A stretch of 42,170 nt of DNA, from the NCBI GenBank assembly GCA_035249225.1, contig DATFGS010000306.1, forward strand, positions 1 through 42,170, given 5' to 3'. Positions 28,682 through 32,300 of the stretch are shown here, in pieces. A program made the translations under genes and the position numbers. The notes under the pieces were generated by a model, which did not search any database, was not told where the DNA came from, and saw nothing but the letters and a program-made list of their open reading frames with translations. This stretch comes from Candidatus Methylomirabilota bacterium. Its GTDB lineage: Bacteria; Methylomirabilota; Methylomirabilia; Rokubacteriales; CSP1-6. Within the stretch, counting starts at the first letter, position 1. Each line of letters begins with the position of its first letter.

Positions 28682-29695
28682 ATGACCCCCGCCACCGCGC
28701 GGTTCGGCATCGTGCTGCTCCCGGAGTCGCTCGGCGATTTCGGCGAGCTCTGCCGCGAGACCGAGGCCAGCGGCTTCGACTGGCTCGGCGTCGCCGACTC
28801 GCAGTCGGTCTTCCGCGAGCTCTACGTCGCGCTCACGCTGGCCGCCCTCAGTACCCGCCGCCTGAGGCTGGGGCCGCTCGTCACCAATCCCCTGACCCGG
28901 CACCTGGTGGTGACCGCGAGCGCCATCGCCAGCGTGGACGAGCTGGCGGGCGGGCGCGCGGTCCTCGGCCTGGGCTCGGGCGACAGCGCGATCTACACGA
29001 TCGGCGCGCCGCCCGCCACCCTGGCCGGCCTCGAGGACTCGATCGCGACGCTGGGCCGCCTGACCACCGGCGAGACGGTGGATCGCGGCGGACGGCCCTG
29101 GCGCGTGCATCGCGCGACGCGCCGCGTCCCGATCTACCTGGCCGCCGAGGGCCCGCGCACGCTCGAGCTGGCCGGCCGGGTGGCCGACGGGGTCATCTGC
29201 GGTCTCGGCCTCACCCCGGAGGTGATCGCGCTCTCGCTCGCCGCGATCGAGCGCGGCGCGCGCGCGGCGGGCCGCACGCTCGACGACATCGACGTCTGGT
29301 GGTTCGCCAAGACCAGCCTGGCCGACACGCGGGCCGCCGCGATCGAGCCGATCAAGATGGCGCTGGCCGCGAGCGCCAACCACGCCTTCCGCTTCACGCT
29401 CGAGGGCAAGGGCGTGCCGCCCGACCTGCACGAGAAGATCCGCGCGCTCCAGCGCGAGTACAACGCGCACCACCACGAGATCCCCGGCGCCGCCAACGCG
29501 AGCCTGCCCGACCGGTGGGACCTCACCGAGTTCCTGGCCGATCGCTTCGCGGTCGCGGGCAGCCCCGCCGACTGCGTGGCCCAGCTCCGGCGCGCGATGG
29601 GGGCGGGGGCGCGCCAGTTCATGATCACCGGCTTCGTGCCGGATCCGCGCGCCTTCGTACGCCGGTGGATGAAGGAGGTCGCCGGCGCTCTTTGA
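28682..29695 (+). CDS. LLM-class (luciferase-like) flavin/F420-dependent oxidoreductase
   Basis: ATG at 28682 (alternative GTG at 28670). GFDWLGVADSQ, LGPLVTNP and LGLGSGD are typical of F420-dependent LLM proteins. Confidence 0.85.
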   Translation: MTPATARFGIVLLPESLGDFGELCRETEASGFDWLGVADSQSVFRELYVALTLAALSTRRLRLGPLVTNPLTRHLVVTASAIASVDELAGGRAVLGLGSGDSAIYTIGAPPATLAGLEDSIATLGRLTTGETVDRGGRPWRVHRATRRVPIYLAAEGPRTLELAGRVADGVICGLGLTPEVIALSLAAIERGARAAGRTLDDIDVWWFAKTSLADTRAAAIEPIKMALAASANHAFRFTLEGKGVPPDLHEKIRALQREYNAHHHEIPGAANASLPDRWDLTEFLADRFAVAGSPADCVAQLRRAMGAGARQFMITGFVPDPRAFVRRWMKEVAGAL

Positions 29696-30945
29696 TCCTC
29701 GCCGCCTTCCGCGTCCGCAGCTTCCGCTTCCAGTGGCCCGCCGACCTCCTCACCTCCTGGGCGTTCGAGATGGAGACGCTCGTCCTGGGCTGGTACGTGA
29801 TGGTGCAGACCGGCTCGGTGCTGCTGCTCACCCTCTTCGGCTCCGCGCAGTTCCTCGGCACCCTCGCCGCCCCCATGTTCGGCGTGCTCGGCGACCGGGT
29901 GGGCGGACGCCTCATGCTCTGCGCGATGCGCGCGATCTACGCCGCGCTCGCGCTGGCCGTCATGGTGCTGGCCTTCACCGGCCGGCTGACGCCCGCCTGG
30001 GCCATCGCGCTCGCCGCGCTGAACGGCGTCGTCCGCCCGAACGACCTCGTGATGCGCAATGCCCTGATCGGCGAGACCATCCCGCCCGACCACCTGATGG
30101 GCGCGCTCGGCATGTCGCGCGCCACCATGGACTCCGCGCGGGTCGGCGGGGCGCTGGCGGGCGCCGGGCTGTCCACGATGCTGGGCATCGGGCTCACCTA
30201 CGTGTTCGTGACGTGCTTCTACCTGGCGAGCCTGGCGCTCACGTTCGGGGTGGCGCGGGCGCGGCCGGTACCGGATTTCGCGGCCCCCTCACCCTACCCT
30301 CTCCCCCTCTCGGGGGAGAGGGATTGGGGATGGCGGGAGCTCCAGGACGGGGTCGCGCACATCCTGAGCCGGCCGCAGCTCCTGGCGCCGATGTGGCTCG
30401 CGTTCCTGATCAACCTCACCGCGTACCCCGCCTCGGGCGGCCTGCTGCCCTACATCGCGCAGCGCGTGTACCAGGTGGACGCGACGGGCCTCGGCTGGCT
30501 CGCGGCCGCGTTCTCGTTCGGAGCGCTGCTCGCCTCGATCGCGATGGTGGTCACCGGCGGGCCCGCCCACCCGGAGCGCTACACGCTCGTGCACACCGTG
30601 CTCTGGTACGCGCTGCTGCTTGTCTTCGCGTACGTGCCGAACCTGGGAGGCGGCCTGCTCGTGCTGCTGGTCACCGGCTTCGTGCAGAGCGTGGCGATGA
30701 TCTCGATGACCGCGACGCTGCTCACCGCCTCGGGCCCCGGCTTCCGCGCCCGGGTGATGGGGGTGCGCTCGCTCTGCGTCTACGGCCTGCCGATCGGGCT
30801 CATCGCCTCCGGCGCGCTCATCGAGCGGATCGGCTACCCGCTCACCATCACCGTGATGGCGGCGCTGGGGCTCGTCTTCACCGCGCTCATCGCGGCCCGG
30901 TGGCGCGCGGCCATGTGGGGCCGGGCTCGCGCGGTCGCGGCGTGA
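29692..30945 (+). CDS. MFS transporter
   Basis: TTG at 29692 overlaps the LLM stop (TTGA), 13 nt after GAAGGAGG. 12-TM-like profile. The central loop contains a REP-derived insert. Confidence 0.82.
   Translation: MILAAFRVRSFRFQWPADLLTSWAFEMETLVLGWYVMVQTGSVLLLTLFGSAQFLGTLAAPMFGVLGDRVGGRLMLCAMRAIYAALALAVMVLAFTGRLTPAWAIALAALNGVVRPNDLVMRNALIGETIPPDHLMGALGMSRATMDSARVGGALAGAGLSTMLGIGLTYVFVTCFYLASLALTFGVARARPVPDFAAPSPYPLPLSGERDWGWRELQDGVAHILSRPQLLAPMWLAFLINLTAYPASGGLLPYIAQRVYQVDATGLGWLAAAFSFGALLASIAMVVTGGPAHPERYTLVHTVLWYALLLVFAYVPNLGGGLLVLLVTGFVQSVAMISMTATLLTASGPGFRARVMGVRSLCVYGLPIGLIASGALIERIGYPLTITVMAALGLVFTALIAARWRAAMWGRARAVAA
30284..30330 (+). repeat. REP-like palindromic element embedded in frame in the MFS gene
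   Basis: CCCCCTCACCCTA precedes the stem. CCCTCTCCCCC (30297-30307) pairs perfectly with GGGGGAGAGGG (30312-30322) across a 4 nt loop. Translated as APSPYPLPLSGERDWG. Confidence 0.8.
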
Positions 30946-30947
30946 AG

Positions 30948-30990
30948 CCCCTCACCCTGCCCTCTCCCCTGAGGGGAGAGGGAGATTTGC
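30948..30990 (+). repeat. REP-like palindromic element just 3' of the MFS stop (terminator-like)
   Basis: CCCCTCACCCTG precedes the stem. CCCTCTCCCC (30960-30969) pairs perfectly with GGGGAGAGGG (30973-30982) across a 3 nt loop. It shares the 5' flank with the intragenic copy. Confidence 0.8.
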
Positions 30991-31034: not shown

Positions 31035-32300
31035 ATGAAATTCACCTGGTTCAACCTGATGCCCTGGCCGTACCTTCCCGACGACTTCCGCGAGCAGAAC
31101 CGCTCGGTCTGGGTGGACATCCCGAGCAAGCTCTACGATCCGAAGAAGGGCCACTTCGTCTACCACCAGTACATGGACCAGCTCGAGTACGCGGAGTCGC
31201 TCGGCTTCGACGGCATCGGGTGCAACGAGCACCACCAGAACGGCTACGGGCTCATGCCCTCCCCGAACCTGATCGCGGCGGGCCTCGCCCGCCGGACCAG
31301 TCGCGCTGCGATTTGTGTGATCGGCAACTCGATCGCGGGCTACAACCCGCCGATCCGGGTGGCCGAGGAGTTCGCGATGCTCGACGTCATCTCGGGCGGG
31401 CGCCTCGTGGCGGGCTTCCCGGTCGGCACCCCGATGGACACCAACTTCTGCTACGGCCAGATCCCCGCGCTGACCCGCGACAAGTACAAGGAAGCGCACG
31501 ACATGATCATGAAGGCGTGGGCGGAGGACGAGCCCTTCGCCTTCGACGGCAAGTACAACCAGCTCCGCTGGGTGAACTGCTGGCCCAAGCCGATCCAGAA
31601 GCCGCACCCGCCCATCTACATCCCGGGGGGCGGCTCGATCGAGACGTGGGACTTCTGCCTCGACTACGACTACAACTACTCGTATCTGTCGTTCTACGGC
31701 TACCTGCGCGGCAAGTCCCTGCTCGAGGGCTACTGGGACCGGGTGGCCAAGCGCGGCAAGGACGACTCGCCCTTCCGCGCCGCCTTCGCCCAGATCATCT
31801 GCGTGGCCGACACCGACGCGGAGGCCGAGGAGCTCTACGCCGAGCACTGCCTCTACTTCTTCAACCGGTGCCTGCACGTGTTCCCGCCCTTCGCGGACCC
31901 GCCGGGCTACCGCACCGTGAACACCATCAAGTACGGCGCGCTCTCCCAGCTCCGCCTCGAGGCGCAGAAGCTGATGGCCAACCTCACCTGGAAGCAGCTC
32001 GTGGAGGAGCGCTTCATCATCGCGGGCAGCCCGGAGACGGTGCGCCAGCAGCTCGAGGAGTGCATCACCGGCCTGCGGATCGGCCACCTCTTCTGCCTGC
32101 TCCACACCGGCAACATGCCGGACTGGAAGACGCGGCACTCCACCAAGCTCTTCGCCGAGAAGGTCATGCCGCACCTGCGCAACCTCTGGCCCGAATGGAA
32201 GCACGACGACCGCTGGTGGATCCACCCGATGGAGGACCGCCTCCGTCCCGAGGAGATGCAGCCCGGCGCGGAGAAGCCCGGGCAGGAGTGGCCGGCATGA
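31035..32300 (+). CDS. LLM-class flavin-dependent oxidoreductase (about 420 aa subfamily)
   Basis: ATG at 31035 after GGGGAGG. LGFDGIGCNEHHQ and PIRVAEEFAMLDVISGGRL are luciferase-like monooxygenase motifs. Confidence 0.85.
   Translation: MKFTWFNLMPWPYLPDDFREQNRSVWVDIPSKLYDPKKGHFVYHQYMDQLEYAESLGFDGIGCNEHHQNGYGLMPSPNLIAAGLARRTSRAAICVIGNSIAGYNPPIRVAEEFAMLDVISGGRLVAGFPVGTPMDTNFCYGQIPALTRDKYKEAHDMIMKAWAEDEPFAFDGKYNQLRWVNCWPKPIQKPHPPIYIPGGGSIETWDFCLDYDYNYSYLSFYGYLRGKSLLEGYWDRVAKRGKDDSPFRAAFAQIICVADTDAEAEELYAEHCLYFFNRCLHVFPPFADPPGYRTVNTIKYGALSQLRLEAQKLMANLTWKQLVEERFIIAGSPETVRQQLEECITGLRIGHLFCLLHTGNMPDWKTRHSTKLFAEKVMPHLRNLWPEWKHDDRWWIHPMEDRLRPEEMQPGAEKPGQEWPA

Follow-up and report, generated by a model that had tools for sequence, protein, structure and literature searches.

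Why does a transporter gene carry a palindromic DNA repeat within its reading frame, and how is this repeat related to the one found directly behind the stop codon? The question is raised by a stretch of 42,170 nucleotides (the window; contig DATFGS010000306.1 of GenBank assembly GCA_035249225.1), in which a gene for a major facilitator superfamily (MFS) transporter holds one copy of an element resembling repetitive extragenic palindromic (REP) sequences and is followed by another. The window genome (G000) is a metagenome-assembled genome (MAG) of Rokubacteria (Methylomirabilota) of 5.19 Mb in 868 contigs, with 71% G+C and 90% completeness. The original prediction proposed that a non-coding palindromic repeat had entered a permissive loop of the transporter and was tolerated there, or alternatively that a recent insertion had compromised the gene. 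The first proposal is supported by the existence of a repeat family, the low model confidence of the loop and the unrelated loops of lineages lacking the repeat. It is very probable that both copies belong to a dispersed REP-like family and that the in-gene copy (copy 1) is an old, tolerated insertion into the disordered central loop of the MFS protein.

A palindrome read in frame within an MFS transporter gene

The sequence confirms two copies of one element, with the predicted sizes of stem and loop (11 bp and 4 nt in copy 1, 10 bp and 3 nt in copy 2). The 22 nt left arm of copy 1, CCCCTCACCCTACCCTCTCCCC (30285-30306), returns in copy 2 as CCCCTCACCCTGCCCTCTCCCC (30948-30969); when up to three mismatches are allowed, exactly these two matches are found in the window and none in 100 shuffles. 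In copy 1 the stem is formed by CCCTCTCCCCC (30297-30307) and GGGGGAGAGGG (30312-30322), and an imperfect outer extension ends at 30333. In copy 2 positions 30960-30969 pair with 30973-30982, followed by the tail AGATTTGCGG, which is not a U-tract. Copy 2 begins 2 nt beyond the TGA stop codon of the MFS gene (30943-30945). The folding energies are -41.3 kcal/mol for copy 1 (z -3.3 against shuffles) and -26.4 kcal/mol for copy 2 (z -2.3). An Rfam scan of the region returned only sub-threshold chance matches (mir-150, Pab91 and antizyme FSE).

Copy 1 is indeed part of the reading frame, since 29692-30945 is a single open frame of 417 aa. The protein matches PF07690 (MFS_1) with 76 bits and PF05977 (MFS_3) with 32 bits, both above the cut-offs. 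The nearest entries in the database come from Methylomirabilota or Candidatus Rokubacteria MAGs and carry the annotation MFS transporter. In the MFS frame copy 1 reads APSPYPLPLSGERDWG (residues 198-213), and the whole element reads (A)PSPYPLPLSGERDWG(W) (residues about 198-214); a peptide across the insert is, for example, PVPDFAAPSPYPLPLSGER. An AlphaFold model built on 40 homologues (mean pLDDT 84.8, pTM 0.84) shows two helical bundles. Residues 186-210, which join helix 6 (ending at 185) to helix 7 (starting at 211), are coil, with pLDDT below 50 for residues 191-210, and this loop is the sole long low-confidence internal segment. The repeat peptide is therefore placed in the linker that joins the six-helix halves, where the original prediction had expected it.

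The condition of the gene bears on the second proposal, a recent insertion that inactivated or compromised the transporter. A foreign palindrome of 49 nt that forms a very stable hairpin might block translation or disturb folding. However, the frame is open, the peptide lies in a disordered loop of the model, and the insertion is shared, as peptide and as DNA, with many related assemblies at 72-95% protein identity. The ratio of nonsynonymous to synonymous substitution (dN/dS; NG86, window gene versus eight repeat-bearing orthologues) is 0.12-0.31 upstream of the element and 0.19-0.46 downstream, in both parts well below 1, and the G+C content at third codon positions (GC3) is about 0.97 on either side in the same frame. 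Both halves of the gene are thus under purifying selection, and the transporter appears to have stayed functional. Damage by a recent insertion is rejected as extremely improbable.

A dispersed family with further in-frame members

If the two copies are members of a family, similar elements should be found elsewhere in the genome, as the original prediction of a REP-like element implied. A pattern that fixed the loop at 4 nt gave no matches, because the loops differ; variable-gap patterns of the core hairpin took its place, and a profile was built from 62 oriented copies. In the window genome the core hairpins found with a variable loop number 46 when exact and 78 when near-exact, and the profile search gave 84 non-overlapping copies on many contigs, 76 of them at E <1e-3. 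The unit is asymmetric and about 35-45 nt long: a 12 nt 5' extension, CCCCTCACCCTG, which lies outside the stem, is followed by CCCTCTCCCC, a loop of 2-9 nt and GGGGAGAGGG. According to a rough GC3-frame classifier of flanks made for this analysis, the distance to the stop codon of a flanking high-GC3 gene is about 0-40 nt for 62 of the 84 copies, and both orientations are represented among them. An orientation rule with the CCCCTCACCC end always toward the stop codon was considered and is contradicted by this census, in which both orientations follow stops.

A control with the core pattern read backwards gave 0 matches in the window genome and in nearly all of 150 other genomes of the phylum. 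In the same 150 genomes the number of exact cores follows lineage: 10-220 per genome in the genus of the window (g1), 16-287 in genus g12, and 0 in genera g6, g13, g14, g23, g32 and g45. The family is abundant in g1 and patchy elsewhere in the phylum; it has expanded in a single genus of Rokubacteria and in a few genera close to it. In the broad sense the name REP is appropriate, as the element is a short imperfect palindrome with a copy number of tens to hundreds per genome, mostly downstream of coding regions. The GTAG/CGTC tag of classical REPs is missing: the consensus GCCCCCTCACCCTGCCCTCTCCCC-loop-GGGGAGAGGG has neither GTAG nor CGTC at either end. Most copies are singlets, and inverted extragenic doublets resembling REPINs, the doublet form of REPs, were seen at C11:8041-8125, C514:4611-4702 and C623:4802-4860.

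The spacing of the two copies in the window, merely 663 nt in a genome of 71% G+C, could also point to a local duplication or to chance similarity in G+C-rich DNA. Against this stand the 84 copies on many contigs, the absence of matches in shuffles, the reversed-pattern control, which gave nothing here and in nearly all other genomes, and the relatives that keep copy 1 yet lack copy 2. Such an origin has hardly any probability left, and we return to copies 1 and 2 as members of a dispersed family.

The MFS gene is not the only gene entered by the repeat. Eight further internal in-frame copies were found in long high-GC3 open reading frames of the window genome, and in six of these Pfam domains flank the insert on both sides (Table 1). 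The acyl-CoA dehydrogenase (ACAD) gene provides an allele series, all of it within the genus (loci L205-L222). Three other genes of the window genome end in a copy that supplies their last 10-15 residues (C29:3085-3124, C396:855-894 and C453:25811-25850), and for the C29 and C453 genes the stop codon lies inside the repeat copy.

The way in which such insertions could be accommodated is suggested by the repeat itself. The consensus is stop-free in five of the six frames, and the in-frame copies make use of each plus frame and of two among the minus frames. It would encode a peptide rich in Pro, Gly, Ser, Leu, Glu and Arg, so that an insertion that keeps the frame would only lengthen or replace a disordered linker. 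In this mechanism copy 1 would have arisen by an old insertion of the element into the DNA for the central cytoplasmic MFS loop, and selection would remove insertions elsewhere in the gene and keep those in linkers.

Table 1. Positions of the repeat copies, their host genes and associated genes (in the window where no other contig or locus is given)
Feature	Contig or locus	Position	Strand	Basis or remark
MFS transporter gene, 417 aa		29692..30945	+	Pfam MFS_1, MFS_3; same-length database homologues cover all of it
Copy 1, REP-like element		30285..30333	+	Sequence, folding; inside MFS gene
Copy 1 core hairpin		30297..30322	+	11 bp perfect stem, loop TCTC
Copy 2, REP-like element		30948..30982	+	Sequence, folding; in spacer after MFS stop
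Copy 2 core hairpin		30960..30982	+	10 bp stem, loop TGA
Downstream luciferase-like (LLM) oxidoreductase gene		31035..32300	+	Bounds the spacer holding copy 2
NuoE-NuoF fusion	G000 C2	6500		In-frame copy between thioredoxin-like and FMN domains
ATP-dependent DNA ligase	G000 C319	2700		In-frame copy, Pfam domains on both sides
MutS2	G000 C325	3511		In-frame copy ahead of Smr domain
MaoC dehydratase pair	G000 C603	4329		In-frame copy between two hot-dog domains
Methionyl-tRNA synthetase (MetRS)	G000 C664	7634		In-frame copy ahead of tRNA-binding domain
ABC-F ATPase	G000 C667	229		In-frame copy ahead of C-terminal domain
Membrane protein, no family assigned	G000 C670	5637		In-frame copy
Acyl-CoA dehydrogenase (ACAD)	G000 C249	8692-9867	minus	In-frame AARIH-DPLTLPSPRGGEGGKG-RHRG
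ACAD, empty alleles	L210, L212, L215, L217			e.g. AARI(D/E)QGSGDRRHRG
ACAD, full alleles	L205, L209			
ACAD, tandem expansion of part of left arm	L207, L208, L211			PLTTGPLTTG...
ACAD, partly deleted alleles	L213, L214, L220, L206, L222, L219			
RAYT-like gene, 288 aa	L192	994-1860	minus	Equivalents in L191, L193-L196

History and maintenance of the two copies

The age of copy 1 follows from the loops of its orthologues. Each of the top-ranking 120 homologues in the database (71-95% identity) has a REP-derived loop peptide, either PSPYPLPLxGER, from the plus orientation, or SPSPPxGGEGRVRG, from the minus orientation; some loops hold both orientations and some two or three copies. In a wider set of 190 orthologous loci with DNA, the loop from helix 6 to a conserved WR(D/E)L motif ranges from about 10 to 45 residues and the repeat peptide is limited to a small set. 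Where the genomes of a genus have zero copies, the loop of the MFS orthologue is unrelated in sequence, as in PDPGAAPRGVALPGPSGW, and the same holds for proteobacterial orthologues (50-57% identity). The segment is thus specific to a lineage, as the orthologue alignment called for by the original prediction shows. The idea would have been in difficulty if orthologues free of REPs carried the same loop sequence, or if the element were absent elsewhere in the genome; REP-less orthologues lack the sequence and the element is dispersed genome-wide. The size of the proposed insert has to be amended. An insertion is upheld, but not a clean gain of the 15-16 residues originally proposed: the loop in the window exceeds a typical repeat-free loop by about 3-5 residues, and so small a net gain suggests replacement, or insertion followed by deletion, rather than a clean addition of 16 residues.

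A gene tree calculated for 104 orthologues from an alignment without the loop places 13 of the 15 repeat-bearing sequences in one well-supported clade of 17 leaves. The same clade includes a repeat-free subclade of four leaves, and L088 and L042 are placed elsewhere, so that the distribution of the repeat requires four changes of state. Recurrent independent insertion of plus copies was considered on this ground and was softened by two observations. A single clade of all 15 repeat-bearing sequences is not rejected by the approximately unbiased (AU) test (p 0.21), and all plus-orientation MFS copies share TAC where the family consensus reads TGC, a variant that in the window genome occurs in the in-gene MFS copy only. 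The AU result and the shared rare variant together favour one old plus-orientation insertion into the MFS loop. Also favoured from the sequences are a second, minus-orientation insertion adjoining the first in L036 and L114, a later loss, in the L115/L004 line, of the first copy, and later additions in the metagenomic relatives P0080, P0093, P0105, P0116 and P0118. The first insertion is older than the split of lineages that are now about 25% apart in protein sequence.

Two or three copies enlarge the MFS loop to 40-70 residues in P0080, P0093, P0098, P0105, P0116 and P0118 and in L036 and L114; the plus-minus pair of L036 forms a long hairpin of about -120 kcal/mol, a REPIN-like doublet within a gene. 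Some contigs with 75-91% identical MFS genes (L112, L114 and L115; P0051 and P0056) are publicly labelled as Acidoferrum, Deferrimicrobiaceae, Limnocylindria or Dormibacteraeota, and are probably mis-binned or mis-classified Rokubacteria.

Copy 2 lies in the 89 nt spacer between the co-directional MFS and LLM genes. The start of the downstream gene, ATGAAATTCACCTGG, is also found in relatives. L113, L003 and L037 keep the same downstream gene but have no copy 2 in the homologous spacer, it is also missing from close relatives whose downstream context is rearranged, and L036 and L040 have a spacer copy 16 and 24 nt after the stop. The absence of copy 2 where copy 1 is kept indicates separate histories, with copy 2 the younger of the two. 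On the upstream side the TTG start of the MFS gene overlaps the TGA stop of another luciferase-like oxidoreductase gene (TTGA, 29692-29695), which suggests translational coupling in an LLM-MFS-LLM gene run.

For copy 2 the original prediction offered a role as terminator or REP hairpin, and only the latter survives. A terminator scan did not call copy 2, and since it lacks the U-tract of a Rho-independent terminator it is not a canonical intrinsic terminator. It is an ordinary extragenic member of the family, and its RNA would fold into a strong G+C hairpin that lacks a U-tract. REP hairpins in operon spacers of the E. coli malE-malF type act as stabilisers of mRNA 3' ends. Copy 2 resembles them as a stable hairpin that no U-tract follows and that stands directly behind a stop codon, between co-directional genes, and by this analogy its role, if any, could be that of a 3' exonuclease barrier or a weak attenuator.

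Several observations weigh against the insertion of copy 1 as a merely tolerated event, and they concern the site, the mobilising agent and the conservation of the repeat. The exact empty MFS site is not reconstructable, and the loop is hypervariable (10-45 aa). No transposase is linked to the family, and there is no match to Y1_Tnp (PF01797) in the 90%-complete, 868-contig assembly. A single-copy gene resembling a REP-associated tyrosine transposase (RAYT) is present in 12 of 21 genomes of the genus; on NCBIfam NF047646, the family of that name, its score is 94.9 bits, above the cut-off of 80. In the loci examined it adjoins a translational GTPase gene, which we take from a reading of its sequence to be typA/bipA-like. 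In the loci of six relatives the RAYT-like gene has no directly flanking repeat, the nearest copy being about 1.3-1.5 kb away beyond other genes, and no inverted repeats were found beside it. Doublets are too few (C11, C514 and C623; in genes, L036 and L114) for a mostly doublet, REPIN arrangement. In view of the missing transposase in the assembly, the unflanked RAYT-like gene and the missing tag, membership of the REPIN-RAYT system is therefore unproven.

The third observation is the conservation of the in-gene copy. In repeat-bearing orthologues a 12-codon repeat window has 81% identity, at the 58th percentile within the gene, while the homologous loop window of repeat-free orthologues of similar divergence has 55% identity, at the 0th percentile. 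The repeat window is thus conserved at the gene average, which a purely neutral passenger does not predict. The in-gene hairpin could be more than a passenger, its intactness being due either to selection on a structure in RNA or DNA or to ongoing gene conversion with the genomic repeats as donors; a structural role could be a translational pause between the six-helix halves, an internal site of mRNA processing or stability, or a recombinase target. The stem pairs perfectly in the window, it is largely preserved across 21 distinct repeat-bearing orthologues, where 89.6% of stem cells are paired, and one stem position alternates between U-A (9 sequences) and G-C (6 sequences), with 6 unpaired. 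Within the window genome, copies inside genes equal the extragenic ones in their match to the family profile (32.9 versus 33.8 bits, p 0.71) and in folding, and most in-gene copies are found at domain boundaries.

However, covariation is not significant, as the pairing observed is attained in 47 of 500 shuffles, and only one pair is altered on both sides. Quasi-palindrome template switching can yield such paired changes without selection, the stems are plainly decayed in L003, L035 and L204, and a simple tolerance filter predicts the placement at domain boundaries equally well. Maintenance of the hairpin or of its peptide, by constraint or by homogenisation with other copies, is for these reasons an alternative of low but real probability. 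Its wider form would be that repeat population and proteome are coupled, the in-gene copies being a maintained, reusable and hairpin-competent linker module instead of decaying junk. Such coupling would act by selection on RNA or DNA structure, for example through an interdomain pause, or by a concerted evolution that includes the extragenic copies, and we consider it unlikely. An old insertion that has been tolerated in the loop is preferred.

Comparison with known repeat systems

The locus changes no current concept; its value lies mainly in the example and in the unexplained conservation of the in-gene copy. It offers a clean and well-sampled case of selfish or structural repeat DNA turned into protein sequence in a poorly known, uncultured soil phylum, with a dated in-frame insertion in the loop of a membrane transporter, about nine parallel cases in housekeeping genes, and a series of presence, absence, expansion and decay alleles in one enzyme, the ACAD. 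It is useful to annotators, since peptides of this kind are neither errors nor marks of pseudogenes, and also to studies of linker evolution and to the question of what mobilises untagged REP-like elements. A literature search on Rokubacteria repeats returned nothing relevant linking Rokubacteria with such elements.

Palindromic repeats in frame in protein genes are known from the Rickettsia palindromic elements (RPEs), as reviewed in PMC10969869. As far as the review's account extends, including that of a study of 2000, RPEs occur in frame in many unrelated housekeeping genes, where they are translated into additional peptide at positions compatible with the fold, their host genes stay functional, and intergenic copies exist too. 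The family described here agrees with this, since its in-frame inserts are found in unrelated conserved genes and are located in loops or linkers. It is set apart from the RPE families by length and base composition: in the same account RPEs are about 100-150 bp long, A+T-rich and confined in their description to obligate intracellular Alphaproteobacteria, whereas the present element is 35-45 nt long, extremely G+C-rich and found in free-living soil Rokubacteria. About 10% of the copies are in genes here, compared with nearly half for some RPE families as that account gives it, and the REP-like cores of RPEs end in CGTC (PMC3733652) whereas the present element is untagged.

REPs with GTAG/CGTC tags were found in frame in several species by Di Nocera et al. 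2013 (PMC3733652). As in that work, the stem-loops are mostly downstream of open reading frames, some overlap or supply the ends of these frames, and a minority lie wholly inside and add residues. The different REPs reported there at about the same recB site in related Xanthomonas species are a further instance of in-gene copies. Unlike those elements, the Rokubacteria repeat has no tag, has the 12 nt extension outside the stem, and occurs in a phylum outside that survey. With the REPIN-RAYT system (Bertels and Rainey 2011, PMC3116915) it shares high-copy palindromes of lineage-specific abundance, some inverted doublets, and a single-copy gene in relatives that matches 'REP-associated tyrosine transposase'; it differs in that most copies are singlets and in that the RAYT-like gene was not found in the assembly and is unflanked in relatives. 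In-frame palindromic repeats are already known, and to these the present case adds an apparently unrelated, shorter, untagged and very G+C-rich family from a new phylum.

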